Sequence record: DRR378314_799
Length of the DNA: 64,000 nucleotides
Reading direction: 5' to 3' (one strand)
The position numbers and the translations under genes are program-made. The notes beneath the pieces are model-generated. The model was not told the DNA's origin, ran no database searches, and saw only the letters and a list, made by a program, of their open reading frames with translations. This document shows, one piece after another, positions 34,101 to 53,498 of the stretch. Numbering within the stretch: the stretch's first letter is position 1; each line of letters begins with the position of its first letter.

Positions 34101-34613
34101 CGCCTATGGGTGGTCACCTCGGCCAGCAACATTGCGGCGAAAAATGGCAAGGGCATTAACAGCGGTGGCTGGAAGCATGCCAGCGCCTATTACCTTGGTC
34201 TGTTGCTGTTGAATTTACAAAAACCGACACGGCTTTTAATTGTATCCAAAGGTGGCTGCCAGCTGCAGGCGGCACCGGTGCCCGCTGAGCTTGCGGTGCA
34301 ACAACTGGAGCAAATACTGGATTTGGTAGCACTGTCAGCGCAGCAGCCGGAGCCTATGCATCTGGACGTAGCCATGACCTGGCTAAGCGCAATGGACAAG
34401 AATGACCAGGACGAAACGCTGGCGCATGAAGCCGCGCGACAGAAGTACGAAGAGGAAGGCTTTCAAGACCCGGCGCTGGTCACCAAAAGCGATTATTGCG
34501 GGCGCGTTGCCGAAAGCTACCAGGCCATTCAGGCATCACCACACTTCCGCCGCTTTATGGACGAACTCTATGACCCCATGCGCTTAACCCTGGTGCCGGA
34601 GGACAAATCATGA
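31146..34613 (+). CDS. recC: Exodeoxyribonuclease V gamma subunit
   Basis: VLVQSNGIAQWLK, LADLFDQY.VYR.DWL, HPLLASWGKQGRD, HSPQRELEVLHD, TLMPMRAIPF, DRYLFLEA. Confidence 0.97.
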   Translation: MSELTPGFIVAHGHRLEDLTDVAVTFTQNYPLAPLEQETVLVQSNGIAQWLKINLAQASGIAAMIDVTLPARFQWKAYRAVLGDDIPKTSPFDKDRLTWRLMRLLPELIEHNPHFAPLKHYTSDDNDGRKLYQLSGRLADLFDQYAVYRADWLDNWVRGQDVLEQELPVEAEQLWQPELWRAVSNDIGIDDYWNNRAELHQRFIDTAQALTERPAGLPPRVVVFGISSLPQQMLQVLDAIKGYTQILLCVHNPSQYHWADIVDGKEALRQAVKASSRLKHKPELPDDPNDDELHQLAHPLLASWGKQGRDYIRLLDLYDETLAKQEAFNTIKLELFEPHSTDHLLAQLQDDILNLRPVQETRELWPVPKTTDKSLQFHVCHSPQRELEVLHDQLLDAFAKDPDLKPRDVMVMLPDVNTYAPYIDAVFGRYHNRFGERDSRAIPYTIADQGERHQRPLMIALELLLQVDQLRFTQTDLFNLLSVPAVQQRFGIGDDDLPQLKRWVKEAGARWGLNAEQRGQFYMPAAEETNSWWFGLKRMIAGYAMGDLAEVGLGDDSPWANVEPYTEVAGLSAALVGCLADVVRTLEQWWQRAQGEHSLPEWVTQGEWLLEQFFEAEEDSDRLLLAKLSDELYQLRDICVEADNESQLRLPIFKDAWLERVDQQNLNQRFLAGAVNFATLMPMRAIPFKYVCVLGMNESDYPRSTPRVDFDLMTDRYRPGDRSRRDDDRYLFLEAMLSARDCFYLSWVGYSAKDNSERTPSVLVAQLRDHLQQGWEVDINSLTVEHKLQPFNPYYFNQEDPDYFTYASEWAQAHRGAVASTSRTASGTSPDDELERTLSINDIKRFIEEPARLYFNWRLDTYFSRNSEDLDDSEAFVMDNLQSWSLTTRLVDAGKKALLNGAGIEASLLKELNRIKREGALGIGAIAEQNGFLLLEQSQEILETYQQSIAGYSGVNEFPVEVFFEHSGLTIDDTLTGLHTNESGERLWVVTSASNIAAKNGKGINSGGWKHASAYYLGLLLLNLQKPTRLLIVSKGGCQLQAAPVPAELAVQQLEQILDLVALSAQQPEPMHLDVAMTWLSAMDKNDQDETLAHEAARQKYEEEGFQDPALVTKSDYCGRVAESYQAIQASPHFRRFMDELYDPMRLTLVPEDKS

Positions 34614-38323: not shown

Positions 38324-40224
38324 CAGAAGTAACCTCAAACACCTTATTTGATGCCCTGCGTGAGTGGCGCGACGCCGGCTGGATACGGTCAATAGACCTG
38401 GCCTTTGTGGAGTTTTTGCAGCAAGCCGGCGAAACGCGCAGTGAGGTATTACTGGCCGCCCTGTGCGCCTCGCACGAAGCCGGCCGCGGGCATACCAGCA
38501 TTGACATAAAAGCTCTGCAGAATGAACCTGAAACTGTACTGAACTTACCACCCGAAAACCGCTATTCACCAAACTGCGATACTCCCAGCGAGTTGTTCCG
38601 TCAGTTTGGTGCCGATGTTGAAGCCGCATTAAGCCAAAGCCATTGCGTAGACACCGACGGAAAAGGCAATCAGCCATTGGTGTTTAGTGGCAGCAAACTG
38701 TATTTGCGTCGTTACTGGCAATACGAAGCCTTTATAGAGAGTGACTTACAGGCGCGCATGAGCGACCGGCCAGTAACGAATGACGACTTGCTGAAAAGCA
38801 CGCTGGCTAAGTTGTTTGCTCAAGCTGGGGATGAAAAGACGGACGACATTAACTGGCAGCGCGTGGCCTGCGCTAATACCGTGCGAAACCGCTTTAGCGT
38901 CATAACCGGAGGGCCCGGCACCGGTAAAACCTACACCGTGGTGCGCCTGTTAACTGCGTTGCAGCATCAGACCTTATTCCTGGGCTTGCCGCCGCTGCGC
39001 GTATCGCTGGCAGCACCTACCGGTAAGGCCGCCGCGCGACTGACCGAATCGATAGAAAGCGAGCTGAATAGGCTACGGGGTGATGCAAAGCTCGCCACCT
39101 TAAAAGACGCCTTAGACTCCATAAAGCCCGAAGGTAAAACCCTGCACCGACTGCTGGGCGTAAAGCCGAATTCGCGCGCCTTTAAACACCACGCCGACAA
39201 CCCACTGCGCACCGACGTTGTAATAGTCGACGAAGCCTCTATGATAGACATTGAAATGATGACCGCGCTGTTAAAAGCCACACCCAAAAATGCGCGGCTG
39301 GTGCTGATAGGTGATAAAGATCAGCTTGCCTCCGTAGAAGCCGGCGCCGTGCTGGGTAACTTGTGCGAAGGCGCTGATGAAGGCCATTACCACAACGACA
39401 CCGCTCAGTGGTTACAACAAGTAGCCGATACACCCACGTTCCCAGGCGACTTAATTCACGATAACGGCGAGCAACGCCTGCAACACGTCGTGAAATTCCG
39501 CAAAAGCTACCGCTTCACAGGCCCTATTGCCGATCTGGCTAACGCCATTAACCAACAAGACAACGCCGCAACAAAACAGGAACTCGAAAAAGCCAAAAAC
39601 GCTGATGAAGATTACCCCGTCAGCCTGTACGAAGTCAGCAGCTTAGACGACCCAGCCTTCGAAGCTTTGATTAAACGTAACCTGACCTCCGGTAGCCTGA
39701 CGTTCCACGTCAGGACCAATGCCAACAACATCAACGATATCGCCCAGGAAGCCCTGCAAAACCTAAGCAACTTCCAAATCCTGACCGCCCTGCGCGAAGG
39801 CCCCTGGGGCGTAAAAGCCGTTAACCAAAAAGTGGGCGATATACTCGGCGTAAACGCCAACACCTGGTACGAAGGCCGCCCCGTTATGGTCACCAAAAAC
39901 GACTATGGCCTGAAGCTGAACAACGGCGACATCGGCCTAACCTTCAAAGACCCAGAACACGGCCACCTGCGCGTCGCCTTTCCCGACCAGACCAACAAGT
40001 CTGAAAATAAAGGCGTGCGCTGGGTACTGCCCAGCCGCCTCACCCACATCGAAACCGTGTACGCCATGACGGTACATAAATCTCAGGGCTCCGAATTCAA
40101 ACACACCGTGATGGTTTTGCCTGATCACGATAGCCCGGTGCTAAGTAAAGAGCTGCTTTATACCGGAATTACCCGGGCTAAAGAGCGGTTGAGTTTGGTG
40201 GGACAAAGATTTGAAAAGCTTTAA
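38320..40224 (+). CDS. recD: Exodeoxyribonuclease V alpha subunit
   Basis: LYLRRYW.YE, TGGPGTGKT, APTGKAAARL, VDEASMID, GDKDQLASVEAG, AMTVHKSQGSEF, LLYTGITRAK. Confidence 0.97.
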   Translation: MTEVTSNTLFDALREWRDAGWIRSIDLAFVEFLQQAGETRSEVLLAALCASHEAGRGHTSIDIKALQNEPETVLNLPPENRYSPNCDTPSELFRQFGADVEAALSQSHCVDTDGKGNQPLVFSGSKLYLRRYWQYEAFIESDLQARMSDRPVTNDDLLKSTLAKLFAQAGDEKTDDINWQRVACANTVRNRFSVITGGPGTGKTYTVVRLLTALQHQTLFLGLPPLRVSLAAPTGKAAARLTESIESELNRLRGDAKLATLKDALDSIKPEGKTLHRLLGVKPNSRAFKHHADNPLRTDVVIVDEASMIDIEMMTALLKATPKNARLVLIGDKDQLASVEAGAVLGNLCEGADEGHYHNDTAQWLQQVADTPTFPGDLIHDNGEQRLQHVVKFRKSYRFTGPIADLANAINQQDNAATKQELEKAKNADEDYPVSLYEVSSLDDPAFEALIKRNLTSGSLTFHVRTNANNINDIAQEALQNLSNFQILTALREGPWGVKAVNQKVGDILGVNANTWYEGRPVMVTKNDYGLKLNNGDIGLTFKDPEHGHLRVAFPDQTNKSENKGVRWVLPSRLTHIETVYAMTVHKSQGSEFKHTVMVLPDHDSPVLSKELLYTGITRAKERLSLVGQRFEKL

Positions 40225-40230
40225 GCGTTT

Positions 40231-42534
40231 TTAAATGAGTTCAGACAAAGACTGAAACTTAAAATTATGGTGCTCCTGATCAAAGTCAGTTGGCGGGCTC
40301 GTCAGTGCCTGCGGCTGACTGAGTTTGAATAGCCAATATTTTTCATCACGTTTTTTGCTACGCGTTCCGGTGATCTCAGCTGTTAAGTCATGTCCTGATA
40401 CTTCATCAACAGATTCGACATGCCAAACATAATTGGCTTTTAATTTGCTACCTTGCTCAATATCTGGGGCAGCAATAACAATAAACTGCATTTCTCTTAT
40501 CTTGTGGTCGATAATATATTTTCGGGTAGATGCCTTTTTCTTCATGTGAAAAACCTCGGCTGAACCATTTAAAAATGACTCGTAATATCCAGGTTTACGC
40601 GGATCAGCTGCCGTTGAGGTAATTAGGGCTAAATCTGAGTGGCGGATACTCTTTAGCCCTGTCTGACTTATCCTTGCAGACTCTTGGAAAAAGTATCTAT
40701 CAATATCCCTTTCGCTTTCTGCTTCTAGTAAGTTGGCTAATTGGTCAGTTAGAAAAGCTTTCAGCCAAGCATTTCCAGACTCATTCGATGCGCCGGGCAA
40801 TAACGGAAATGCACCGATCCCAACTTCGTTAATAGCGTCCCAGTATGGGTTAGCAGATATGTCCTCAGATGTTTGTGCGTAAAAACCTGGGTACAGTGCA
40901 AAAGCCCCAAAGACCGGCCTAGTCCTGTTGGTGCCTAAGCTATCGCTTTTAAGATAAATCAATGCGTCTCGGTATCTGTGCATTTGGTTAAGCGCATCAG
41001 TAGGAACACAATCCTTATCTGGTACTGTACTGTCGATGCGATATTTTGCATCAAACACCCAAACAAGGCGTTCTCGGTCACCAATGGATACCTCAAGGAA
41101 AATGTCGGGTTTTTGCATTGATGTCCAAGCCTTGTAAGGATCGCTTTGCAGGGAGATGCGAGGTTCATGGGCCACTCTTATGCTTACATCACCTTTTTTA
41201 AAGGATTGTGAAGAGCTTAATCCATCCTCGAATTCAACCTTGAGCCCTTTACGTTTTAGTTTGGGTTGCTCTGTATCACTAACCTTTTCGAAGCCTAGTT
41301 CTTCAACGATCTGGGTCACTTGTAAATAACACCAAACTTCATATAAGTCAGCGATAGAGCGCACGGATACCGAAGCATCAACACCAAACAAATCCAGATA
41401 CAGTTTAAGTTCTTGCCAGGCACGGTAAACTTTGGCGTATCCAGACTTCTGTTGCAGTACTAACGAGTCAGTATTTAATCCTCTAAAACGCCCGACTTCC
41501 TTAAAGAAAGGAGCGTTCAGGGCTTTGTTTAGAGGTTCGCACCACATCTCTAGCTTATTGAAAAAGTGATCCGACAAAATTTCTTTTTCTGGATCAACCA
41601 ACTCGGCATCGAGACTGACTTGCTTGAGCTTAGCTACCAAGGTTTGAATGGCGAACTTTATAAATCTATTTTCAGGCGTGTCGACCTTTAACTTTTTTTG
41701 TTCGACCGCGTATCGCTTATCATAGCGCTTTTGCGCTAAACTCTCTTTAACTTGCTGCTCTAGTTTAGCTGATAATTTACCTTTAAGACGGTCTGCTTTT
41801 AAGTGCTTTGTCGAATTCAGTAGCCTGGCGTGTGGCGAATGAGAAATACGCTTGATGCCATCATAAAACTGATTTCTTAAATGCTCAAAATGATTAAGCC
41901 ACATGACGGGGAAATGGCTGCGTTCAGTATTGTTTTGTGCGTCGTGGCTGGTCTTTTCCGTTAAGGTAAAACACCAGTCGCGGTATGGGTGTCGTAGTTG
42001 TTTTATAATGGATGTTAAGTCATCCCGGATATCCATTTTGGTGGGGAAAACTTCAAAGCTGACAGTATCAGTTTGTGCCGGCTGCCCTGGCAATTGATAA
42101 CTGAGCGGTAGCTTTAACCAGCCCAAGCTATTACCTGTGTTCAGTGTGCCCCACAACACGTGTGTGTCACCGAACATCGAGTGATTAAACGATTCTGATA
42201 CCGACTTTAAGTCATGCGTAATACGTGGTGGAAATTCATGAGCATTGGCTTTAAACGAAAATTCGAACCCATAGGTCGAGTTTTCGAACAGCATAGGGTG
42301 ACTCAGTAAAAAGCTCGCGTCGAGCTTTTGCGAGCCATGAGCAAGGCTTTCCGTGTTATTACAGAAAACGGAGAACTCGCCAGCTTGTTCGGATAATATC
42401 TTTACCGAAGAGACAGGTATATCCTTTCCCCTGGCGGTTAATGCCTGCTTGAGCTGTCGGTATCGACTTTCGGTATGGTTAGATTTTACTGCCAAATCCC
42501 AAGTCGGTGTTTTTACCTTAATAAGTGTCTGCAT
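40231..42534 (-). CDS. McrC-like PD-(D/E)xK nuclease with a DUF2357-type N-terminal region and a C-terminal extension
   Basis: DTPENRFIK, LQQKSGY..VY, LYEVWC, KPDI...FDAKYR, QMHRYRDAL, ALYP, IGAFPLLP; starts 3 bp after the McrB-like gene. Confidence 0.85.
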   Translation of the reverse strand: MQTLIKVKTPTWDLAVKSNHTESRYRQLKQALTARGKDIPVSSVKILSEQAGEFSVFCNNTESLAHGSQKLDASFLLSHPMLFENSTYGFEFSFKANAHEFPPRITHDLKSVSESFNHSMFGDTHVLWGTLNTGNSLGWLKLPLSYQLPGQPAQTDTVSFEVFPTKMDIRDDLTSIIKQLRHPYRDWCFTLTEKTSHDAQNNTERSHFPVMWLNHFEHLRNQFYDGIKRISHSPHARLLNSTKHLKADRLKGKLSAKLEQQVKESLAQKRYDKRYAVEQKKLKVDTPENRFIKFAIQTLVAKLKQVSLDAELVDPEKEILSDHFFNKLEMWCEPLNKALNAPFFKEVGRFRGLNTDSLVLQQKSGYAKVYRAWQELKLYLDLFGVDASVSVRSIADLYEVWCYLQVTQIVEELGFEKVSDTEQPKLKRKGLKVEFEDGLSSSQSFKKGDVSIRVAHEPRISLQSDPYKAWTSMQKPDIFLEVSIGDRERLVWVFDAKYRIDSTVPDKDCVPTDALNQMHRYRDALIYLKSDSLGTNRTRPVFGAFALYPGFYAQTSEDISANPYWDAINEVGIGAFPLLPGASNESGNAWLKAFLTDQLANLLEAESERDIDRYFFQESARISQTGLKSIRHSDLALITSTAADPRKPGYYESFLNGSAEVFHMKKKASTRKYIIDHKIREMQFIVIAAPDIEQGSKLKANYVWHVESVDEVSGHDLTAEITGTRSKKRDEKYWLFKLSQPQALTSPPTDFDQEHHNFKFQSLSELI

Positions 42535-42537
42535 GGA

Positions 42538-44376
42538 CTAAGGCCAGAAGCTGGTGTATCCGTTAGTTCCCAGGCGACGTTGCATCCTCTCTAGTGTGCT
42601 AATACTCCGGCATCGTATCCTTTTAGCCTGTCCATCCCTGTCTTTCCTGAAAAAGTCTGTACGCTCAGTATCTACTATCTGTCGAAAGTTGGGGTGTTGC
42701 TTCAAAATAAGCTCTAAACCCGATAAAACGTTATCTGTACCGTTACCGGAGAGCGATAACTTGTCGCTGTCACCTTCAATACGAGGTAGCACTTTTGTCA
42801 TTAAAAAATCATCCCAAACGGCTGTGAGTTCTTTTTCAGTCTTCGGATTAAAGCAATATACTGATACCAACAGTTCATTTAATGCCCTGAACGCTAGCTC
42901 GAAAGGGGTTCCTTTTAATACGCTATTCACTTCATCAAGAAACGAAACAGATTGATCTCGAAAAGCTTCGTTGTCATCAAATAAGCCCGGCGCACGCGCA
43001 TCAGAAACCGTCGAATAAGTTAGCGATTGAATAGTTGGTTGCCCCTCAAAGAACTCATCAAAACGGTTCTCGAAAAAAAGCCCAAAGTCTATAGTGAATG
43101 CTCTGTCTATGACCTTGCGTGAGAATCCATGTGTGGTTTCATCCATGTTTACAGTGCCGGCAATAATTAAATTAAACGGTAGTGGAATGCCGTGTTCTTT
43201 AAATTGCTCAAATAATTGGTCAGACACACCAAGCGCTTCTTTTAAGCTGCCTTCAGCTTTGTCTCCAAGTCCTTTGATGAGCTCAGACGATACGAGAGCA
43301 TCAGAGCGATACCTAAGCGTTTCAGAGCTATGATCAAACTCACGTGTTTCCAGAACAGATAAATAGTCAGCAAAGTACTGTTCGACAGGTGCTAAATTCA
43401 TCTCGTCAAGGCATAGCCAATAAGGGTTAACGACTTCCTTGGTTTGTGGGATCCACCACGCTCGACCTGACTCGTCCAACTCTATGGTTGGATTTAAATT
43501 AGCCCAGGCCTGAGCAATAAACGCGAGTACCTTGGTTGGCACGTATTCAGGTCGCTCGCCAAGCCGAGAAATATAACCCAGTAAATCTGAAGGCTCGTGC
43601 CAATCAGGGCGAACCGGAACAATCTCATAATTGTTTGTCCCTTGTCTGCTCGCTTTAGCTTGCTCGCGAACGAAGCGGGTTTTACCTGTGCCTGAAATAC
43701 CGGCTAGGAGAAGAAAAGGTTTAGGTAGTGCTACCGAATGGCTAGTTGGCAAGGTGCTTTCCCCATCTTCTGAGCCCGGCAAAATGATGTCACCTGACAG
43801 AATGCTATCGACAAGCCTTTTATAAATTGATGTAAGTTCTTTTAAATCACTTTCAATGTGGTCATTGTTTTTCAGATCAGCTTGCGAGTAATACTTAGCT
43901 CCGGCAGTAGCCCAATTATAATTGGCACCGTTACGACCAGGCTCGTTTACATAAACGTCTGAATTCCAGCGTGATAAGCCCGGGAGTGCCTTTCTAATTG
44001 TTTCTTTCCAACCCTTAGCAACTACTTTGGCTTCATTTAATCCATAAGTACGGATTAAAGTTGTTGCGCCAAAACCTAGTGATAGATATACCCCAGAACC
44101 ATCAGCTTTGAACAAAAAGACCGGGTATATCCCGTTTTGTGCTGTTTCTGTGTACCGCCGATCAAAGATAGCGGACCACGGTACAGTCGCCCAATTGCCT
44201 TGGCCCGGGCTGCCAAAAAATTTTAAATTGACTATTTCACTCTCAGAGAAGGTTCCTTCTATTGAATTAGGTAAATCGTTTCTAATGCAATTAGCTATGT
44301 CATGGCCGGCAAAGGGTTGGCTTCGAGCTTCCGGCCAGGCATCTAGAATAGTAGAGAGGTTTTTACTTAATGACAT
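42538..44376 (-). CDS. mcrB: McrB-family AAA+ GTPase with an N-terminal DUF3578-like DNA-recognition domain
   Basis: GQGNWATVPW...TAQNGIYPVFLF..DGSGVYLSL; Walker A GISGTGKT; VPVRPDW; Walker B LDEMNLA; GTVNMDETT; FSRKVIDRA; KVLPRIEG. Confidence 0.88.
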   Translation of the reverse strand: MSLSKNLSTILDAWPEARSQPFAGHDIANCIRNDLPNSIEGTFSESEIVNLKFFGSPGQGNWATVPWSAIFDRRYTETAQNGIYPVFLFKADGSGVYLSLGFGATTLIRTYGLNEAKVVAKGWKETIRKALPGLSRWNSDVYVNEPGRNGANYNWATAGAKYYSQADLKNNDHIESDLKELTSIYKRLVDSILSGDIILPGSEDGESTLPTSHSVALPKPFLLLAGISGTGKTRFVREQAKASRQGTNNYEIVPVRPDWHEPSDLLGYISRLGERPEYVPTKVLAFIAQAWANLNPTIELDESGRAWWIPQTKEVVNPYWLCLDEMNLAPVEQYFADYLSVLETREFDHSSETLRYRSDALVSSELIKGLGDKAEGSLKEALGVSDQLFEQFKEHGIPLPFNLIIAGTVNMDETTHGFSRKVIDRAFTIDFGLFFENRFDEFFEGQPTIQSLTYSTVSDARAPGLFDDNEAFRDQSVSFLDEVNSVLKGTPFELAFRALNELLVSVYCFNPKTEKELTAVWDDFLMTKVLPRIEGDSDKLSLSGNGTDNVLSGLELILKQHPNFRQIVDTERTDFFRKDRDGQAKRIRCRSISTLERMQRRLGTNGYTSFWP

Positions 44377-44585
44377 GTAGTTACCTTTAACCACTTCCTG
44401 TGGATTTTTATCATTTTGATTACGATAACCTTTATCGCATTGTAGGAAAAGGATTACGACTCTTTACTACCAAATGCCAGATTTTACTCTGATTTAATTA
44501 ATGTTAGGAATTCAAGTCAGCCTAAGTTGCTGCAAATCATTATTAGTTCTAATATACCCCCACTACCCAGTAACTTACTGATCTA

Positions 44586-45740
44586 ATGACTCTTTCCTTT
44601 AAAAGCTTAACCCGTTCATTTGCCTGTCTATTTGTTCTCGTCACCGCTGCCAGCGCGCACACCGCTGAAATCTTCACTATGGAATCTAAGCTCCTTGATG
44701 AAGGGATCACGGCGCGGGTCGCGTTGCCGGAAAGTTATGAGCATTCAGACAGTTTTCAGTATCCGGTGCTGCTGGTTATGGACGGTTCAACGCAGTTTGA
44801 GCACATAGCGGGCAACGTTAATTTTTTAAGCACGTTTTCTATTGTGCCGGAAATGATTGTTGTCGGGGTCAGTGCAAGGAACCGCTTAAAGCGCTTTACT
44901 CACACAAAAATGGAAGCCTACGCTGACCGCTCTGGCGGTGCCGAGCAGTACACCCAGTTTTTGCAAGATGAGCTGATGCCAGCGTTGCAGAAAAAGTATA
45001 GAGTGTCGCCTTATACGGTGGTTACCGGGCACTCGTTGTCGGGGCTCTATACTAGCTATCTGGCGACTCACCACTCAGATTTTATCAATGCTGCAATATC
45101 GGTGAGCCCAAGCCTTTGGTGGGATGATTTTGCGCTTATCAATGACATAAAAGCGGCAGAGCAAGAGGCAGAAAAGCCGGCGGTACGTTGGTTTGTCAGT
45201 ATGGCGAATGAGCCTAATGAAATGGCCGAGAGCTATGAGCGTTTATTGAACGTGCTGGAAGCGAAGCCGGAATCGGCTTTTAACTGGGAGTCAAAGCAGT
45301 TTCCCAACGAAACCCATGACAGCACGCCGCTAATTGGCAATGTCGAGGGACTTAAATCCGTTTTTCGTGGGTTTAACGCGGTGCCGAACATCGAAATTAA
45401 GTCGCTGGAGCAGTTGCAGGCATTCTACGCTGATTACGAAAAAGCGGTGGGTTACGACTTTCCTATGTCGGTTCAGCAATACAATGTTTATGGCTTAAAG
45501 GCCGCTTATGAAGGCAAAGTTGACTGGGGACAGGCTATTCTGGAGAAAGGCGTTGAGGTATTCGGCGAGTCCGAAATTTTATGGGACAGCCTGGCAACGG
45601 TTTATTCAATGAATGACAACAACGAGAGTGCGCTAAAGGCCTCGAATAAAGCGGTGAAACTCGCACGCGAGCATCAGTCAAAGTACATCAGTGAAATTGA
45701 AGCGCAGAATAGTGATTTGAAAAAACAGACAGAAAATTAA
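44586..45740 (+). CDS. Exported alpha/beta hydrolase (IroE/Fes-like putative esterase) with a TPR-like C-terminus
   Basis: Signal peptide, LP.SY...YPVL..MDG, nucleophile motif GHSLSG, SPSLWW, ETH. Confidence 0.8.
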   Translation: MTLSFKSLTRSFACLFVLVTAASAHTAEIFTMESKLLDEGITARVALPESYEHSDSFQYPVLLVMDGSTQFEHIAGNVNFLSTFSIVPEMIVVGVSARNRLKRFTHTKMEAYADRSGGAEQYTQFLQDELMPALQKKYRVSPYTVVTGHSLSGLYTSYLATHHSDFINAAISVSPSLWWDDFALINDIKAAEQEAEKPAVRWFVSMANEPNEMAESYERLLNVLEAKPESAFNWESKQFPNETHDSTPLIGNVEGLKSVFRGFNAVPNIEIKSLEQLQAFYADYEKAVGYDFPMSVQQYNVYGLKAAYEGKVDWGQAILEKGVEVFGESEILWDSLATVYSMNDNNESALKASNKAVKLAREHQSKYISEIEAQNSDLKKQTEN

Positions 45741-45744
45741 ATTG

Positions 45745-45758
45745 TACATATTTATGTA
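45745..45758. promoter_or_regulatory. Palindromic operator candidate upstream of the YafN/YafO-like pair
   Basis: TACATA-TT-TATGTA, upstream of a TATAAT -10 hexamer. Confidence 0.35.
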
Positions 45759-45833
45759 TATTATTTTGTTTGTAATTTCGTATGTTTTGTGGCTATAATT
45801 TAGTCAATAGGTATAAAAGTGGTGAGGTAAAGT

Positions 45834-46127
45834 ATGAACACACAAACTATATTGGCTGAAAAAACGGTATCTGCCAGTGACGTGCGCAAGCACCCCTGCC
45901 AGTATTTTGAAGCTGAGCCTGTGGCGGTACTTTCCCACAATAAAACCGCTGGTTATATGGTGGGTGCCGAGTTATTTGAAGCCATGGTGCGCCAGTTGGA
46001 AGCCTGTAACCCTAAAGTAGAGTCCCTTTTTAGGCCGACAGCAGCGCGGCTAAAGGCTATTAGCGCCGACGCAGAGAAGCTTTTAGCTGAAGCGAAAAAG
46101 TCTGATCTGGATGACTTTGAAGAGTGA
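45834..46127 (+). CDS. Phd/YefM-family antitoxin (YafN-like)
   Basis: TILAEKTVS.SD.RK.P, PVAVL.HNK.AGY; acidic tail; stop overlaps the toxin start. Confidence 0.78.
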   Translation: MNTQTILAEKTVSASDVRKHPCQYFEAEPVAVLSHNKTAGYMVGAELFEAMVRQLEACNPKVESLFRPTAARLKAISADAEKLLAEAKKSDLDDFEE

Positions 46128-46522
46128 TTCGGGTTTTTAAGAGCAAACAGATTCGTCAGCAATTAACTGATATTGAACTGGATGCATTAGTAAAAGACTT
46201 TAAGCGCTATAAAAGTGGCGAGGGCGTGCCTGACCTGTTCGGGCGCGATGAACGCTATGATCATCCAGATACCTTCCCGGTTCTTCGTGACAATGAAGTA
46301 ATGCATTTGCATCTACAAGATCCCGATGAGCCTTGGCCTTTGCATTGCATTCAGTTTGCTAAGAAAAGTGATACGCACTTAGTCTATTGTCCGGCAGCTA
46401 TGACGCCCAACTGCTATTTGCTTATGATAATTCTTGATCCTCCTGCTCACAACAAAGCATGGAGCAGTGCGGTTATGCTACCCCTAGGAATAATGGCAGA
46501 AAAATTCCGTAATCGGTATTAG
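46124..46522 (+). CDS. YafO-family toxin
   Basis: L..DFK.YK, P..FGRD..Y, HLHL, SD.HLVYC, L.P.AH. Confidence 0.8.
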   Translation: MIRVFKSKQIRQQLTDIELDALVKDFKRYKSGEGVPDLFGRDERYDHPDTFPVLRDNEVMHLHLQDPDEPWPLHCIQFAKKSDTHLVYCPAAMTPNCYLLMIILDPPAHNKAWSSAVMLPLGIMAEKFRNRY

Positions 46523-47187
46523 ACTTGCCGCAAAACGTCCAATACACCCTGGGCTAACGCCTTTTCCTGTGGTGACGCGTCGAAGTGTTCGTTGGCTTTG
46601 ACGCGATCCTGCCAATGCTTCACAAAGTTCATGGGTTCATCCGGGTCAATTTGCTCTGGTTCTGACATTAAGGTGTTTTGCTGATCGGTTTTAGCTGTGT
46701 GAAAATCCATGCGATTGCGTTGCTGCGAGCTAATTGCACCGGCCTCAAACAACTGATTTGCAAGCTTACTCATGTCGTTAGGTGATATGTCCCGTGGGTT
46801 AAAGTCCTCGGTTATAATTTTTTGAATATCGCCAGGACTAACGGGTTGTTTACCGTCATTGCCGCCTTCAGCCTGGCGGCGCATAGCATCTTCAAAAAGC
46901 TGGTCTCGGGCTGACATTAAGCTTTCAAGTTTGTCCTTTTCTTCTTTGTTCAGGTTTTCTTTACTTTCCAGCTCTTCTATTTTCTGCTCAATTTCTTCGA
47001 GCTTTTCGGTATCAACACCCATGCGGTTCAGCAGCATGCTGCGATAAGCTTTGTCTATTAATGTCTCTTTCTCTTCTTGTGTTTTTTTCTGTTCAGCCTT
47101 GTTATCAAGTGGTTCTTGATTCGTTTCACTCTTAGTCATTGCAGGTGTTGACTGGCTTACGCTGTTGATTAATGAGTTAATGTTCAT
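46519..47187 (-). CDS. Hypothetical protein (coiled coil plus a C-terminal PRDISP...LA..L..AG.IS domain)
   Basis: 222-aa ORF with a strong GGAGGA RBS and an upstream sigma54 site. Confidence 0.7.
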   Translation of the reverse strand: MNINSLINSVSQSTPAMTKSETNQEPLDNKAEQKKTQEEKETLIDKAYRSMLLNRMGVDTEKLEEIEQKIEELESKENLNKEEKDKLESLMSARDQLFEDAMRRQAEGGNDGKQPVSPGDIQKIITEDFNPRDISPNDMSKLANQLFEAGAISSQQRNRMDFHTAKTDQQNTLMSEPEQIDPDEPMNFVKHWQDRVKANEHFDASPQEKALAQGVLDVLRQV

Positions 47188-47280
47188 GATTCCTCCATAC
47201 CAAAAGTTGCCTGCCGGGTGGCAAAAGCTTGCCTGTTTAGCGCATTATTTATGCGTTAACGGTGCTTTTGGATAAGAAAC

Positions 47281-47296
47281 AGCAAGAGGTGTGCCA
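47281..47296 (-). promoter_or_regulatory. Sigma54 (-24/-12) promoter
   Basis: Minus strand TGGCAC-ACCTC-TTGCT, an exact fit to TGGCAC-N5-TTGCW, oriented toward 46519..47187. Confidence 0.78.
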
Positions 47297-47303
47297 TTAA
47301 ACT

Positions 47304-47344
47304 TATGGTTGTCAATTGACAACCATAGGGTTGAGCTCTATTCT
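47304..47344 (+). promoter_or_regulatory. Perfect 24-bp palindrome overlapping a sigma70 promoter
   Basis: TATGGTTGTCAATTGACAACCATA (47304-47327); TTGACA-N17-TATTCT (47316-47344). Confidence 0.75.
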
Positions 47345-47369
47345 TCTGTTACTGAGATGATTAAAGGAG

Positions 47370-47867
47370 ATGACGACAATGAATGAATATGACTTTACGT
47401 TGAAGTTTGTCATCCCTAAAGACTTGAAAACCGATGATCTTAGCAGCCAGATTTTTGCCGGCGGATGTGATGATGCAATTATTGGCGTGGGAGTTGCGGG
47501 TCGATTGGCGTTAAATTTTGTACGTGAATCAAGTAATGCAACAGAGGCAATTCGCTCTGCGTTATCTGATATTCGAAAAGTAATCCCTCAGGCTAAGCTG
47601 GTTGAAATAGGTCCGGATTTGGTTGGCTTGTCAGACGCTGGCGAGCAACTCAATATGAGCCGGCAATATCTGAGAAAAGTACGGGATCAGGAATTGGAAA
47701 CGTTTCCTCTACCGGTGCATGAGGGCAACCCGTCACTTTGGCATTTATGCCACCTGCTTGAATATTTCCGTCAGGAAAAGCTACGCGATATTCCAGAATG
47801 TAAAATTGAACTAGCGAAAGCCGCTATGACACTTAATTACGAACAACAGAAGCAGCGGGTTTATTGA
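47370..47867 (+). CDS. DNA-binding protein with a C-terminal HTH (antitoxin/regulator-like)
   Basis: YDFTLKF, GCDDA, AL.F.RE, then PDLVGLSD.GE.LNMSRQYLRK and FP.PVH.G...WHL; AAGGAG RBS (start 47370 or 47379). Confidence 0.7.
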   Translation: MTTMNEYDFTLKFVIPKDLKTDDLSSQIFAGGCDDAIIGVGVAGRLALNFVRESSNATEAIRSALSDIRKVIPQAKLVEIGPDLVGLSDAGEQLNMSRQYLRKVRDQELETFPLPVHEGNPSLWHLCHLLEYFRQEKLRDIPECKIELAKAAMTLNYEQQKQRVY

Positions 47868-47888
47868 GGTTTTAAAGCCGCCGACCCC

Positions 47889-48212
47889 TCAAGCCTGCTG
47901 ATAAGGCTTAGCGTGAGGTTTCAAGCGCTTTACGTTTTCAGCTTCTTGTTCGTATGCCCGGTGGCGTACGTCCCAGATTTCGACGGCGTGCTGAATGTTC
48001 AACCAGAACTCCGGGGTGTTACCCAAAGCGGCAGCTAATTTAATAGCCATAGGTGCGGTCAAGGCTCCTTTGTCATGAACAATTCGGCTGAGCGTGTTTC
48101 TGTGTACTCTCATGGCATCAGCGAGCTCTTTTATTTCAATGTTCATCGGTTCAAGAAACTCGGTTATTAGCATCTGGCCAACGGATACCGGGCGACGTTT
48201 TGTATCTCTCAT
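47889..48212 (-). CDS. higA: HigA antitoxin (XRE HTH)
   Basis: P.SVGQML..EFLEPM, LA.AM.V.R.TLS.I, MA.KLA.ALG.TPEFWLN.Q. Confidence 0.9.
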   Translation of the reverse strand: MRDTKRRPVSVGQMLITEFLEPMNIEIKELADAMRVHRNTLSRIVHDKGALTAPMAIKLAAALGNTPEFWLNIQHAVEIWDVRHRAYEQEAENVKRLKPHAKPYQQA

Positions 48213-48223
48213 AATTATCCTTT

Positions 48224-48517
48224 TTAACTTTGGTAAACGTGTGGATCCAGGTATGTATCTTGGGCGATACCGTCTTCCCAGTGGAAAATAAGTCGATACT
48301 GTTTGTTAACCCGGATAGAACAATACCCCGAAAGTTTTCCTTTTAAATATTCGAAGCGATTACCTGGGGGAACCCTTAAATCTGACTCCTGCGTTGCAGC
48401 ATCCAAAATTTCGAGCTTCCTGAAGAGCGCTCCTTTGATGATCTTCGGTATTTTCTTGTGGCTGATATCATCTTCGTAGAATCGTTCTAGCCAATCGTCC
48501 CTGAATGTAACGGCCAT
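48224..48517 (-). CDS. higB: HigB toxin (RelE superfamily, plasmid-killer type)
   Basis: FRD..LE.FY, DLRVPPGNR.E.LKG, SIRVNKQYRLIF.W, YLDPH; toxin-first gene order. Confidence 0.9.
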   Translation of the reverse strand: MAVTFRDDWLERFYEDDISHKKIPKIIKGALFRKLEILDAATQESDLRVPPGNRFEYLKGKLSGYCSIRVNKQYRLIFHWEDGIAQDTYLDPHVYQS

Positions 48518-48540
48518 GGTTTACTGATCACTTTGTATTC

Positions 48541-48569
48541 ATTCTATGCACAACAGTGTTGTGCGTCAA
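48541..48569 (-). promoter_or_regulatory. higBA sigma70 promoter with a palindromic operator filling the spacer
   Basis: Minus strand TTGACG-N17-TAGAAT; GCACAACA-G-TGTTGTGC at 48548-48564. Confidence 0.8.
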
Positions 48570-48719
48570 GTTGGTGTATTTATACTAAATTTGAGTTCTT
48601 AAACTATCAATTGGTAAGGCATTGATATAAATGTCTTACATTGGCGGTATTAAAACTGGGCAAACCCGCAAAAATTTGTTTTGCTGTGGTTATAGGAAAC
48701 CAAAAACGAATGGACTGAT

Positions 48720-50000
48720 ATGCACCAACGCCGCTCAGGGAAAACCACGACCTTTAATGCCGCTACGCCAGACAGCGATGCCCAGCGCGACAGGGCGCGT
48801 ATTATTCACTCGTCGGCGTTTCGTCGCTTGCAGGCAAAAACTCAGGTGCTGGGTGTGGGCGAGAGTGACTTTTACCGCACACGCTTAACGCATTCTATGG
48901 AAGTGGCTCAGATTGGTTCGGGCATTTGTGAGAAGTTAAAGCAAAAGTATGCAGAGAACGACGCTACTTCGACGCATATCCCGTCTTATTTTCAAATTGA
49001 GGCCATTTGTCTGGCGCATGATATTGGTCACCCGCCGTTCGGGCACGGTGGCGAAGTGGCGCTGAACTACCACATGCACAGCAGCGGTGGTTTTGAAGGT
49101 AATGGGCAGACCCTGCGTATTATCTCAAAGCTGGGTGAGTATTCCGACCACGACGGTTTGGATTTAACTCGTCGCACTTTACTCGGTGTGCTTAAGTATC
49201 CGGTGCTGCATAGCGAAGTTAGTACTCCCTCACTGTCTGATGAAAAGCACTTAAGTGCTTTTAAACCGCCCAAATCTATTCATGACGACGAACAGGATGT
49301 GCTGGACTGGATACTGGAACCGCTGACTCCCAACGACAAAGCGACCTTTCGCTCCACTAAAATGAAAGAGGGTAAAACCAAAGCACAGTACAAAGCTTTT
49401 GATACCTCCATTATGGAGCTGGCCGACGACATATCGTACGGCGTGCACGATTTGGAAGACTCGCTGGCACTGAACCTGGTAACTGAAAAGCAGTGGCGCG
49501 AAGACGTACTCGCTGTTTTGGACGACAACAGCGTTATTATGCTGGAAGAGCGGTTTTATACCGAGGCGCTTTTTTCAGGCCAAAGCCGTGCGCGTAAGCA
49601 CGCAATTAGTAAGCTTGTCGGGCATTTTGTGGATGCCATTGAAGTGAAAGAGCAGAACCGGTTTGAATCGCTCTGGTTAGATCTGCAGGCAAGCCTTCCT
49701 GAGAACATTGAACATACTCTGCAAGTGTTGAAGGACTTTGTGTTTAAGCATGTTATTCGCAGCTCTTCGGTGCAGGTTCTGGAGTACAAAGGCCAGATGA
49801 TGATCTTGAAGCTGTTTCAGGTACTGAGCGAAAACCCAGAGCAACTGCTGCCTGGCTCTACTTTGCAAAAATATAAAAACGCAGAAAACCCCAAGCGTGT
49901 TATTTGTGACTATATTTCGGGCATGACGGACAACTACGCGACCAAGCTTTACAGTAAACTGTTCAGCCCAGACACCGGCTCTGTATTTGATAAGGTTTAG
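48720..50000 (+). CDS. HD-superfamily dGTP triphosphohydrolase (candidate antiphage dGTPase)
   Basis: RDRARIIHSSAFRRLQAKTQV, RTRLTHSMEVAQ, AHDIGHPPFGHGGE, FEGNGQTLR, MELADDISY, DYISGMTD. Confidence 0.9.
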   Translation: MHQRRSGKTTTFNAATPDSDAQRDRARIIHSSAFRRLQAKTQVLGVGESDFYRTRLTHSMEVAQIGSGICEKLKQKYAENDATSTHIPSYFQIEAICLAHDIGHPPFGHGGEVALNYHMHSSGGFEGNGQTLRIISKLGEYSDHDGLDLTRRTLLGVLKYPVLHSEVSTPSLSDEKHLSAFKPPKSIHDDEQDVLDWILEPLTPNDKATFRSTKMKEGKTKAQYKAFDTSIMELADDISYGVHDLEDSLALNLVTEKQWREDVLAVLDDNSVIMLEERFYTEALFSGQSRARKHAISKLVGHFVDAIEVKEQNRFESLWLDLQASLPENIEHTLQVLKDFVFKHVIRSSSVQVLEYKGQMMILKLFQVLSENPEQLLPGSTLQKYKNAENPKRVICDYISGMTDNYATKLYSKLFSPDTGSVFDKV

Positions 50001-50002
50001 TT

Positions 50003-50710
50003 ATGAATGTTTACATGATGCTGTTACTGGCCTGGGGGGCGGGGCTTTCCGCCTTTTTAGGTGGTGTATTTGCCCGTTACGAAGGCATGCCCAAAACTAC
50101 CGGAAAGCGTGAGTTTATTCACGGCATTACCGCCTTTGGCGGTGGCATTTTAGTGTCCGCAGTCGCTTTTGCTCTGGTTCCTGAGGGAATGAAAGAATTG
50201 AATGCCTGGTCTCTCACTTTGTTGTTTGCCAGCGGCGGTATTGTTTTTTGCTGCATTGATGCGTGGTTGGCTAAACAGGGTGGAAATGCCTCTCAATTTC
50301 TTGCCATGCTAATGGACTTTGTTCCCGAGGCTTTATCGTTAGGTGCCGTTTTTGCCATCAGTCCAAATACAGGGCTGTTATTGGCCGTTTTCATTGGCGC
50401 GCAAAACTTTCCCGAGGGCTTTAATGCCTACCGTGAACTGAAGGCGGCGGGGCTCACCAAAAAAATGGCACTGGGCGGGCTATTTGCAGCCTCATTCTTC
50501 GGCCCTCTTGCAGCAATTTCGGGCTATTTATGGTTGAGCGACACCCCGGCAATTACGGCTATGATCATGAGTTTCGCCGCTGGCGGTATCCTTTACTTAG
50601 TATTTCAGGATATTGCCCCACAAGCGAGAATGCGACGTCACTGGACGCCCTCACTCGGAGCTGTATTGGGCTTTATTATTGGCATGCTGAGTAAGCAGTT
50701 GCTGGGTTAG
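50003..50710 (+). CDS. ZIP/ZupT-like metal transporter
   Basis: About 8 TM segments; AFGGGIL, LVPEG, DFVPEA, QNFPEG, FAAGGILY..F.DI.P. Confidence 0.78.
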   Translation: MNVYMMLLLAWGAGLSAFLGGVFARYEGMPKTTGKREFIHGITAFGGGILVSAVAFALVPEGMKELNAWSLTLLFASGGIVFCCIDAWLAKQGGNASQFLAMLMDFVPEALSLGAVFAISPNTGLLLAVFIGAQNFPEGFNAYRELKAAGLTKKMALGGLFAASFFGPLAAISGYLWLSDTPAITAMIMSFAAGGILYLVFQDIAPQARMRRHWTPSLGAVLGFIIGMLSKQLLG

Positions 50711-51312
50711 TCGTCCTGCTTGTAAGCAATAACATAAAAACTAACGGCTCCGTCGCTTAAAATTTTAGTTCCATAATGTTGCCCATAAAACTGAAGTTCA
50801 TTGTTAGCTTTCATAAAGGAACGAAACTGTTCTTGGCTTGTAAATATACCCGTAACAACACACATCGTCAGCCGACATTCAGATTCTGCGTGTAACAGCC
50901 CTTTCTGGTTAGAAAGCAGGCTGGATAGCTTTTTTTCGCGGCTGATTCCCCACGAACTGATGCCATTTTGCGGTGCGAATCTCTCAACGCCACGGAGGTA
51001 ATTACTGTTATCGGTAAAGTGCTTATTCTGTCCCTCAAAAAAACTCGGGTTTTCTGCAATAAGTTGCTCGCGTTTGAGCTCGTCTTCATTTGAAGTGTCG
51101 CCTGCAGGCTGAGGTGACTCAACTGACTCGGCAGCTTGTTCGGCACTGGTCTCACTGTTGGATGTATCCAGTTGCGCGCTGGTTTTTGCTTTTGGAGCAT
51201 CGGCATTTGCTGGTGCGGTTGGTGTTTTTAAGCCGTCCGTTGACTGGCGGCCAAGCCAAAAAGAGAAAGCAGCAACCAAAACAAATGCGCATGCTAATAA
51301 AATCCTTTTCAT
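50707..51312 (-). CDS. Hypothetical membrane-anchored protein
   Basis: N-terminal TM, low-complexity linker, C-terminal domain with W...RE and ECRLTMC; GAGGT RBS. Confidence 0.6.
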   Translation of the reverse strand: MKRILLACAFVLVAAFSFWLGRQSTDGLKTPTAPANADAPKAKTSAQLDTSNSETSAEQAAESVESPQPAGDTSNEDELKREQLIAENPSFFEGQNKHFTDNSNYLRGVERFAPQNGISSWGISREKKLSSLLSNQKGLLHAESECRLTMCVVTGIFTSQEQFRSFMKANNELQFYGQHYGTKILSDGAVSFYVIAYKQDD

Positions 51313-51334
51313 AGTTACCTCTAAAGTATTCATG

Positions 51335-51348
51335 GACTAAATTTGGTC
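51335..51348. promoter_or_regulatory. Near-palindromic operator candidate upstream of the Phd-RelE/ParE pair
   Basis: GACTAAATTTGGTC (one mismatched pair), followed by a further TTTGGAC half-site and TATAAT. Confidence 0.4.
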
Positions 51349-51414
51349 TTTATTTGGACTTCTGTTGGTTTTCACCTATAATTTTAAAAGTAACCTAGTC
51401 TAGGGGGTCAGACA

Positions 51415-51687
51415 ATGTATCAAACTAAACAGTCACGCATCACAACGGTTTCAGCATTTAAGAAAGAACTTTCCTCAATGAATGTTGAGGAGCCTGTTGT
51501 TGTTACCCAAAATGGGGAGCCACTCTATGTGGTTCAGGATCCAGCCCAGTATGAAATGCAGCAAGAACAAATGGCTTTTATGAAGCTAATGTCATTCGCG
51601 GAAAAAGATTTAAAAGCTGGACGTACCTTATCTTCAAATCAGCTTCGTTCTAATCTTGAGGAAGTGCTGACGAATGACGGCAATTAG
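51415..51687 (+). CDS. Phd/YefM-family antitoxin
   Basis: TVS.FKK, EPVVVTQNGEP.YVV, AE.D.KAGR. Confidence 0.82.
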   Translation: MYQTKQSRITTVSAFKKELSSMNVEEPVVVTQNGEPLYVVQDPAQYEMQQEQMAFMKLMSFAEKDLKAGRTLSSNQLRSNLEEVLTNDGN

Positions 51688-52015
51688 CATTGAATATACC
51701 GAAACATTTGAACGTCAAGTTAGTGCATATAGCCAATATCTGGCGAGGTATATTGGTCAATCACAGGCAAGGGGGCTGATATTTAATTTTATAGATATGC
51801 TTGAGCAGAGGGTAATACGCTATCCCGAGAGCAGCCCGCTTTGTGAAGAAGCGGCCAGCTTAGGTTTTACGAATTATCGTGACTTTATTCTCCCTGATCA
51901 GCAATTGAGAGCCATTTATCGACTTGAAGAAGATAAAGCATATATGATGCTTTTTCTAAAATCCCGCCAGAGTATCAGAGAAGCGCTCCTGCAATATTGT
52001 TTGCGGGTTGAGTAA
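51674..52015 (+). CDS. RelE/ParE-family toxin
   Basis: IEYT.TF, I..YL, PES.P.C, YR, RAIYR, RQS; overlaps the antitoxin 3' end. Confidence 0.72.
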   Translation: MTAISIEYTETFERQVSAYSQYLARYIGQSQARGLIFNFIDMLEQRVIRYPESSPLCEEAASLGFTNYRDFILPDQQLRAIYRLEEDKAYMMLFLKSRQSIREALLQYCLRVE

Positions 52016-52038
52016 TTACCTGAGAATAGATATTTCGG

Positions 52039-52488
52039 TCAACGATAGGCCGGAGTTGGCTCATTGATTGATGATTGCGGTGGTTGTTGCAGCCAGTTTT
52101 CGGTAATAAGCCCGGGAACTCGCTCAAATTCTCCGGTGTTATTGGTAACAACCGTGAGTCCATGGCATCTGGCATGGCCAGCTATCATCTGATCATAGGG
52201 GCCAATAGGTGTGCCCTGCTGTTTCAGTTTGTGACGAATAAGTGCTGTGTGATAAGTCGCGTCAGTATCGTAATTTAGTATTTTTAAACGAGCCAAAAAG
52301 CTGTCGAGTTTGTCGGCATTAGTTGTACGTTGCTGCGAGTTTTCGACACCATATTGAAGCTCCATTACGGTTACTGAACTGATGCAGAGCTCGCGCGAGT
52401 GTTCATCAAAAATAGGAGCTAAATATGCTGGTCTATTCTTCATGATATAGATGCAAATATTCGTATCGAGCATATAGCGCAAGTTCAT
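52039..52488 (-). CDS. vapC: VapC PIN-domain toxin (resembles the tRNA-fMet-cleaving group)
   Basis: YMLDTNICIY, SSVT.MEL.YG, G.PIGPYD.MIAGHA, VVTNN..EF.RVPGL..ENW. Confidence 0.93.
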   Translation of the reverse strand: MNLRYMLDTNICIYIMKNRPAYLAPIFDEHSRELCISSVTVMELQYGVENSQQRTTNADKLDSFLARLKILNYDTDATYHTALIRHKLKQQGTPIGPYDQMIAGHARCHGLTVVTNNTGEFERVPGLITENWLQQPPQSSINEPTPAYR

Positions 52489-52715
52489 AGCGAGTCGCGC
52501 TCCTGCTCCTCAGGCTGCTCGCGTTCAACCATAAAGTCATCGCTTGCGGGTTCGCCGTTAAACCAGGATGCCCAGCTTGTTTTGGCCGGGGTAATAATTC
52601 GGCTTTCACCAACCACTAAAACTTCCACCTCTTTAACGTCTTCGGAAAAGGCAACGTCTTTGGGTAATCGGACAGCTTGAGTTTTGTTACTTTTAAATAA
52701 GCTTGTTTTAGTCAT
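52485..52715 (-). CDS. vapB: VapB antitoxin (AbrB-type)
   Basis: TSLFKSNKTQAVRLPK.VAF, W..WF, DFM.ER.QP..QER. Confidence 0.92.
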   Translation of the reverse strand: MTKTSLFKSNKTQAVRLPKDVAFSEDVKEVEVLVVGESRIITPAKTSWASWFNGEPASDDFMVEREQPEEQERDSL

Positions 52716-52725
52716 TGGTCTTCCT

Positions 52726-52776
52726 GTATATCCAAAATGGATATACCTATTTTAGTCTAAATTTTAATCTTGTCAA
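52726..52776 (-). promoter_or_regulatory. vapBC promoter and operator
   Basis: GTATATCCA-AAA-TGGATATAC perfect inverted repeat (52726-52746); minus strand TTGACA-N16-TAAAAT. Confidence 0.75.
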
Positions 52777-52841: not shown

Positions 52842-53498
52842 ATGGCTAGAAACAAGAAAGAATCCATTGTTTTGGAAACTCCGACGGGGTCCGATCACGT
52901 GCTGCTGCATTCGTGCTGCGCGCCATGTTCAGGCGAGGTTATGGAGCGCATGGCGGAAGCTGGCATTAAATTTACCATTTTCTTCTATAACCCGAATATT
53001 CATCCGGAAAAAGAGTATTTGCTGCGTAAAGAAGAGAACATCCGCTTTGCTGAGAAGCTGGGTGTGGACTTTATTGACTGCGATTACGACTCTAAAAACT
53101 GGTTCGAACGGGTTAAAGGCCTGGAGTGGGAGCCGGAGCGCGGTGAACGTTGCACCGAATGTTTTGATATGCGCTTTGAGCGTACAGCGTTGTATGCCCA
53201 TGAAAACGGCTTTGACACCATTACCAGTTGCTTAGGTATTTCACGCTGGAAAAACATGGATCAGATAAACGACTGTGGTCAGCGCGCGGTAGCGCCATAC
53301 CCTGGCCTGCACTACTGGACCTTTAACTGGCGTAAACAAGGCGGCGCGGCGCGTATGGTGGAAATTGCCAAACGTGAGCGTTTTTATCAGCAAGAATACT
53401 GCGGCTGCGTTTATTCATTACGAGACATGAACCGCTGGCGCCTGAAAAATGGCCGTGACCGTATAGAGATAGGCGTTCAGTACTACACCAACGAATAA
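52842..53498 (+). CDS. queH: Epoxyqueuosine reductase QueH
   Basis: [41 protein letters not shown]. Confidence 0.93.

Follow-up and report, generated by a model that had tools for sequence, protein, structure and literature searches.

The interval between recD and queH in a group of Idiomarina genomes contains a slot, bounded on the left by the last codons that recD needs and on the right by the promoter of an esterase gene, that holds interchangeable DNA-restriction cassettes. The stretch of DNA analysed (the window) comes from sequence record DRR378314_799 and is 64,000 nucleotides (nt) long; the island considered here occupies its positions 40231..52776 (approximately 12.5 kb), and the close relatives of its RecD protein belong to the marine genus Idiomarina. 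A preliminary description of this DNA had presented the island as a variable defence cassette, exchanged without an integrase between recD and queH. The region is indeed variable, integrase-less, rich in defence genes and swapped between lineages, but what is replaced is 40203-44543 and not the recD-queH interval as one. The interval is a scaffold of fixed gene order with several independent slots and patchy toxin-antitoxin modules, rather than a single cassette.

A border at a fixed base inside recD

Of the 28 genomes of the genus, 27 have a recognisable RecD, and 21 of these form with the window a clade that has a common border (n = 22). A metagenome scan gave 73 loci, 26 of them further members of this clade, for a total of 48 clade loci, of which 40 are distinct once duplicates are set aside. 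In all 48, homology ends at the 3' edge of a 29-bp element, here called the pad (CGGGCTAARGAGCGGTTGAGTTTGGTGGG), whose last shared letters, GAGCGGTTGAGTTTGGT(GGG), lie at 40199-40202 of the window, 22 bp upstream of the recD stop. Variable DNA begins within recD itself, at about 40203; the preliminary description, which started the hotspot 6 bp after the recD stop, was correct about the 6-bp gap between recD (ending at 40224) and mcrC (from 40231), but not about where variable DNA begins. Twelve unrelated sequences follow the border, and the identical run that they share with one another to its right is 0-7 nt long. Column conservation, which is 0.9-1.0 before the border, falls sharply to approximately 0.5 at position +4. 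In each of two sequencing runs, from different studies, the McrBC allele is present together with another allele whose cargo is joined at precisely 40202.

The RecD protein is affected by this arrangement. The best 58 RecD matches end in LSLV and a short variable tail, and the R-x-G-[GA]-L C-terminal end, which is kept by 52 of 55 outgroup RecD proteins, is absent from the RecD of the window, the C-terminal helix being replaced by tails derived from the cargo. Loss of the conserved C-terminal helix is evidently tolerated by RecD.

The pad is under constraint at the level of the DNA: seven of its degenerate codons are nearly fixed in non-preferred forms, none of them ending in C (for example, TTG in 40/40, AGT in 39/40, a further TTG in 40/40 and CGG in 36/37). 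It is the longest run of fixed degenerate codons among the six genes tested, and no comparable run exists in the dGTPase, ZIP, queH and 46519 genes. Seven two-mismatch copies of a 17-mer of the pad found elsewhere in the genus were inspected, and all lie within other coding sequences; in the rest of the order, outside the clade, 4 of the 300 genomes searched have a raw match to the pad with three mismatches. A Chi site at the border was considered and rejected, the octamer TTTGGTGG having a strand ratio of 27:16 and no enrichment (36 of 40 20-kb samples of genome G001).

Restriction cassettes in the slot

Restriction-type genes directly follow recD in 21 of the 22 genomes, the other (G002) keeping a remnant only, and restriction-type cargo is present in 46 of the 48 clade loci. 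The commonest occupants among the 22 genomes are a DUF3427 type IV enzyme (ten genomes) and an HNH nuclease (four). McrBC is intact in two genomes and fragmentary in two more, which add methylases or SspFGH, and other genomes carry an MspI-like restriction-modification (RM) system, an EcoRII-like RM system with HNH and SNF2 genes, or GmrSD/Nsn-like genes. The metagenome loci, 25 of 26 with restriction-type cargo and one (L127) nearly empty, add TdeIII-like, LlaJI-like and BpuJI-like RM systems, Mza-like genes and DRT3. No integrase or transposase was found in the slot among 74 of 113 cluster representatives and 20 metagenome proteins, and insertion sequence elements occur solely in the rearranged G020 locus, outside the cargo.

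The DUF3427 gene, which encodes a helicase-nuclease, may be the oldest occupant, since it overlaps the end of recD, stop codon included, by 8 nt and is already present in the deepest branch of the clade. Outside the genus a type IV gene adjoins recD in 0 of 18 loci (1.5-kb flanks), and in the sister group within the genus an unrelated kinase-GGDEF gene follows recD.

In the window the slot is occupied by an McrB/McrC-type pair, recognised as such in the preliminary description and passing Pfam and/or NCBIfam cut-offs. It has the features of the NxD clade, namely a specificity domain, Walker A and B motifs and the NxD signature in McrB, DUF2357 and PD-(D/E)xK in McrC, and mcrB placed upstream in one operon (the McrB start is the ATG at 44376, with an alternative GTG at 44394); methylation of its target is predicted from the domain only. 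The combination of McrB_N/DUF3578 with an AAA+ GTPase bearing NxD(E), and of DUF2357 with PD-(D/E)xK downstream, is that described for this clade (PMC11090510), and differs from the NxxD prototype of E. coli K-12. According to the same source, none of the NxD GTPases has been characterised.

Some slot genes that adjoin methylase or restriction genes have no significant family match (L107:5896-6567; L111:8766-9488 and 10373-10666), and are promising as new nuclease or defence genes. Such unannotated cargo, for example in L107 and L110, provides better defence candidates than the genes proposed in the preliminary description. In another metagenome locus (L114:8831-11898), a DRT3 reverse-transcriptase pair and an EcoRII-like RM system occupy the slot.

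Exchange between lineages

Sequence comparison demonstrates that the cassettes move and that the same cassettes reside in different species, because the McrBC sequences of two species can agree to 93-98% where their flanks agree to about 80%. In the comparison of the window with G023, the figures are 93-98% for mcrBC, about 80% for recBCD and 79-85% for the esterase, with flanks of 68-94% per 100 nt, and mismatches restart 18 nt to the left of the border and approximately 70 nt before the esterase start. Over the pairs of loci with the same cargo, they restart 13-44 nt to the left of the border. The recD gene of G006 is 65% identical to those of G004, G009 and G016, but its type IV gene is 95-96% identical to theirs. 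The three cargo lineages that are common do not group on the recD tree but are spread over well-supported clades, and the dGTPase of G013 has a placement that conflicts with that of its recD.

These observations bear on the notion that an ancestral superset of genes was inherited vertically and pruned by deletions, without exchange. The strictly colinear module order would agree with it, as would the near-empty slot of L127 and the clean loss of PDC-M06A and of toxins, and pruning probably describes part of the toxin-antitoxin patchiness. For the restriction slot, however, it is already contradicted by twelve mutually exclusive sequences after one border, by cargo that is far more alike than the flanks across species and by cargo types that are polyphyletic on the recD tree, and as an account of the whole interval it is very improbable.

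Separately, five genomes, some of them of the sister group (L096, L099-L102), share 135 nt of a membrane-transporter-like gene without a single difference, which suggests recent transfer across the genus.

How cargo may be replaced

This locus bears on the way in which integrase-less defence hotspots acquire and swap their cargo. The explanation to which we incline, with somewhat more confidence than doubt, is that of an integrase-less restriction hotspot, like the immigration control region (ICR) of E. coli, spread by the homologous recombination of the host. In its oldest state the type IV gene would have overlapped the recD stop, which would mean that restriction was appended to the recCBD operon. 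Several alleles may then have been kept circulating by phage pressure, each spreading through a pair of RecA/RecBCD crossovers, one in recD and the other in the esterase or in scaffold genes beyond it; homologous double crossover has been put forward as the route in hotspots without integrases (PMC5635113). Recombination tracts whose donor had different cargo would stop at the heterology boundary, eroding linkage to within tens of bases, and the borders would be clean for this reason. New cargo would first have been joined by rare illegitimate events, with the LSLV codons as their leftward limit; homology-facilitated illegitimate recombination is a mechanism for such joining. The pad, in what is the least secure step, may have been kept as the last shared perfect homology usable across species that are 65-85% identical. 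Restriction and RecBCD would act in series on phage DNA, cutting being followed by degradation; since RecBCD goes on to degrade lambda DNA that restriction has cut (10.1101/2021.07.08.451572), this serial action is a plausible link between the cargo and RecBCD.

Several observations weigh against this explanation. Co-transferred flank is expected and is nearly absent, so that the erosion argument is needed: beyond 24 nt from the border, recD identity is 0.85/0.86/0.93 for same-cargo pairs versus 0.84/0.81/0.90 for pairs with unrelated cargo (the pairs are non-independent). The 12 lineages diverge 0-7 nt from one base despite a type IV tail of about 36 nt that was available, and homologous exchange alone leaves seven nearly fixed non-preferred codons, beside a freely diverging tail, unexplained. 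The route of DNA entry was not identified.

Another way of looking at the border is to consider the pad as a cis site at whose 3' edge a trans-acting recombinase, relaxase or nuclease fixes the left crossover, the right end being settled by homology at the esterase leader. The abrupt loss of conservation just beyond the pad would fit this proposal, as would the restart of same-cargo mismatches so close to the left of the border and the exceptional run of fixed codons, which the other gene ends of the interval lack; moreover, site-specific replacement has been suspected at the E. coli ICR, where its mechanism is undemonstrated (PMC4498929). A second copy of the pad that could act as attR at the far end of the cargo was not found, however, and the phage and plasmid collections searched contained no attP above chance; in viral contigs there were nine matches, all to a 17-mer and none extended. 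At least four later events (in G001, G020, G002 and L127) left remnants of earlier cargo and bypassed the pad, and other junctions of the interval likewise coincide with the limits of genes or promoters. That the pad is a dedicated exchange site, at which an enzyme of the host or of a visiting element swaps unrelated restriction cassettes at a fixed base across species, is rather unlikely, in our estimation; if true, it would provide a defined cis site for the kind of cassette replacement that has long been suspected at the ICR of E. coli.

An integron site in particular was tried and rejected. The pad includes a sequence that fits the core consensus of integrons, GTTRRRY. An integron integrase (TIGR02249, IntI) above cut-off is present in only 1 of the 28 genus genomes, G022, which has no pad; no attC-like repeat family was among the matches listed (no attC model was run), and several junctions have no room for one. 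In G022 itself the integron integrase lies at G022:C12:110958-111902, and a phage-integrase-family gene is also located downstream of recD.

It has also to be considered that the pad serves a regulatory or RNA-level function at the end of the recCBD message, unrelated to exchange, in which case the border would mark where selection on RecD halts erosion. In a consensus fold (-15.4 kcal/mol) the pad is base-paired with C-rich codons that precede it, the mean z versus synonymous shuffles, -1.45, is the lowest of 11 windows, and no terminator-like site at the end of recD was among the matches listed. Another recD window reaches -1.36, however, compensatory change was seen in 0 of 23 pairs, and in the alignment the TTGAGT hexamer has no conserved -10 box downstream, all of which makes this function an improbable explanation of the border. 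As for the preferred homologous exchange and the site-directed model, synonymous recoding of the pad would leave the protein as it is, and the two are therefore separable in one experiment.

The scaffold and its modules

The recD-queH intervals are colinear across the 22 genomes. The modules run in the order recD, slot, esterase, yafNO, 46519, PDC-M06, higBA and dGTPase, followed by an S8 protease, ZIP, 50707, the phd pair, vapBC, a deaminase and queH; those of the window, where all the open reading frames (ORFs) of the preliminary description were recovered at the positions given there, are listed in Table 1. To the right of the slot, toxin-antitoxin modules come and go singly on this scaffold. 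The modules are cut down to a promoter and an ORF, and toxins are frequently lost one at a time. In the esterase, dGTPase and ZIP genes too, the C-terminal tail differs according to which module adjoins it. In one genome (G005; L023-L024) the interval is expanded to approximately 30 kb and includes methylases, an IetA-like AAA ATPase, an S8 peptidase, a WYL gene and several unannotated genes.

Table 1. Features of the recCBD-queH region, in window coordinates; fractions are clade genomes that have the feature
Feature	Position	Strand	Remarks
recC-recB	31146..38323	+	Left homology flank, GC-rich; Pfam
GCTGGCGC, Chi-candidate octamer	31238, 32030, 34418, 36493		In recC-recB
recD	38320..40224	+	C-terminally truncated, ends LSLV plus short tail; TIGR01447 above cut-off
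Pad, CGGGCTAARGAGCGGTTGAGTTTGGTGGG	40174..40202	+	Conserved 29-bp border element inside recD coding sequence
Cargo-derived RecD tail	40203..40224	+	QRFEKL in window; changes with cargo
Replacement slot	40203-44543		Single hotspot of interval; occupant NxD-type McrBC
McrC-like nuclease	40231..42534	-	DUF2357 and PDDEXK_7, PD-(D/E)xK; slot cargo
McrB-like GTPase	42538..44376	-	McrB_N (DUF3578/ADAM, PF12102) and AAA_5, NxD(E) signature; slot cargo
Slot right border	44544..44585	+	Conserved promoter/leader of esterase gene
Alpha/beta-hydrolase esterase	44586..45740	+	PF00756; N-terminal hydrophobic segment/signal peptide; scaffold, 18/22
yafN-yafO	45834..46522	+	NF007300, NF007377 above cut-off; yafN 10/22, yafO 6/22
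46519, helical hypothetical protein	46519..47187	-	Scaffold, 17/22
Sigma-54 -24/-12 promoter	47281..47296	-	TGGCAC-N5-TTGCT; upstream of 46519 in 17/17 copies
Perfect 22-bp palindrome	47305..47326	.	Over sigma-70-like -35; operator-like; upstream of PDC-M06 pair in relatives
PDC-M06B (47370)	47370..47867	+	Partner PDC-M06A deleted; 8/22
higB-higA	47889..48517	-	Pfam and/or NCBIfam cut-offs passed; higA 7/22, higB 4/22
dGTPase	48720..50000	+	Second copy, anti-phage dGTPase family; scaffold, 21/22
ZIP-family metal transporter	50003..50710	+	PF02535; scaffold, 15/22
50707, hypothetical protein	50707..51333	-	N-terminal hydrophobic anchor or signal; 4/22
Phd-family antitoxin and PfiT-like toxin	51415..52015	+	Pair in 4/22
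vapB-vapC	52039..52715	-	NF040493, NF010285 above cut-off; each 6/22
queH	52842..53498	+	Right flank of interval, 20/22; Pfam

The four type II toxin-antitoxin pairs of the preliminary description are all confirmed: YafNO, HigBA and VapBC pass their cut-offs, and in the fourth pair the antitoxin at 51415 passes PF02604, while its partner at 51674 has no Pfam match and resembles PfiT (PDB 9w3a, E 8e-12). The absence of mobility features is upheld as well, since none of the ORFs of the island encodes an integrase or transposase (Pfam scan), the window has no tRNA, and no meaningful direct repeat is among the matches listed. As for the contrast in GC content between mcrC and recC, mcrBC is indeed lower (43.7%), but the difference arises mostly because recCBD is GC-rich (54.1%): the island as a whole has 44.8%, its remaining part 45.6% and the rest of the window 46.7-48.1%.

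The genes between the known modules had been proposed as new defence components, and the sensing of phage RecBCD inhibitors had been invoked. A region of new defence genes, possibly guarding RecBCD against such inhibitors, might be suggested by the physical linkage to recCBD, by the match of 47370 to a PADLOC candidate and by a dGTPase that passes the cut-off of an anti-phage family. Two of the supposedly unknown genes, 44586 and 50003, encode an esterase and a ZIP transporter, however, and together with 46519 they are near-core genes with envelope, transport or sigma-54 features that behave as scaffold; 50707 is patchy and matches unnamed clusters only, with no family and no defence match. 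The dGTPase scores 543.7 bits with NF041026 (cut-off 400), a match that is not diagnostic of an anti-phage dGTPase because a genus-wide paralogue encoded elsewhere passes the same cut-off (562.5), and the patchy accessory distribution expected of such an enzyme was not found among the clade genomes. No retron, Gabija or Old-type match was among the families listed for the scanned representatives, which in some of the scans were at most five per protein, and nothing indicates that the cargo guards RecBCD. This reading is, in short, scarcely credible.

Only 47370 has a connection with defence. It matches PDC-M06B (E 9e-58) of a two-gene PADLOC candidate system, but it is an orphan in the window, where the complete pair is absent; PDC-M06A is present in 4 of the 22 genomes, between the palindrome and the 47370 homologue. 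The predicted model has a ferredoxin-like (ACT/RAM-type) N-domain and a helical, HTH-like C-domain, and its fold is of the common ferredoxin-like kind (best Z 7.7). A HicB-like fold was our assumption, and comparison of the model did not confirm it.

Family searches with 46519 returned none, and its predicted model is helical and of low confidence (pLDDT 56). CGGCAA-like hexamers, which may be FlrC enhancer boxes, lie near all 17 copies of the gene. Its promoter matches the RpoN consensus (PMC3439928), and 46519 may be a flagellar or RpoN-regulon gene.

Relation to known systems

The ICR of E. coli K-12 carries mcrBC. This region (yjiPRS to yjiAXY) is similar to the Idiomarina slot in having variable restriction genes between conserved framework genes and signs of homologous exchange (PMC4498929). 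The flanks and the taxon differ, and in Idiomarina the border on the left falls within a recombination gene that is essential, shortens the protein which that gene encodes and coincides with a 29-bp element that different species have conserved.

Hotspots that turn over rapidly without recognisable mobile elements are a known class: 27% of the hotspots of horizontal gene transfer have no integrases and transposases (Oliveira et al., 2017, PMC5635113), hotspot 37 of E. coli is mostly devoid of detectable mobile elements (PMC10121019, which makes no mention of recD), and the core defence hotspots of P. aeruginosa (PMC10250203) are grouped, as the Idiomarina slot is, with defence hotspots lacking such elements. 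The integrase-less hotspots are defined by gene content, and the accessible parts of these sources report no base-precise border inside a flanking gene. What is new is that the border is precise to the base and lies inside recD, that RecD is truncated and that the pad is conserved. The literature search found no paper on a recD hotspot in Idiomarina; supplements and most subscription journals were outside its scope, and hotspot tables could list the locus.

The replacement flexible genomic islands of Alteromonas likewise place alternative clusters at one position, with homologous exchange between clonal frames and species (PMC4898812). They encode surface glycans and are accompanied by recombined tracts of single-nucleotide polymorphisms in neighbouring genes, whereas the Idiomarina slot holds restriction cargo with nearly no co-transferred flank. 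Integrons and pdif-type cassette arrays are alike in their gene-sized modules, many of them toxin-antitoxin pairs with their own promoters; in contrast, the pad-bearing genomes have no IntI above cut-off, no repeated attC-like elements are among the repeats listed, and several modules of the interval overlap at stop codons.

Composition of the recCBD flank

The octamer GCTGGCGC is a candidate Chi for Idiomarina, since it equals the Chi of the Pseudomonas syringae RecBCD (10.1101/266460). In the same G001 samples as were used for the border octamer, it is the most polarised octamer (67:13). The window contains 11 copies on the + strand (8852, 10738, 12677, 17363, 31238, 32030, 34418, 36493, 53434, 53607 and 62228) and none on the - strand, and none lies within the island.

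The 3' third of recD (window 39001-40200) has an inverted strand skew and is C-rich at 4-fold sites, where C reaches 0.40-0.60 in 20 of the 22 clade genomes versus 0.20-0.33 in the six other genomes of the genus; a recombination-linked bias or a Rho-loading tract is a possible cause. Along the G001 samples (L056-L095), GC skew is positive to about 0.7 Mb only and mostly negative across the other 2.1 Mb, a pattern that would reflect either very unequal replichores or an assembly inversion.

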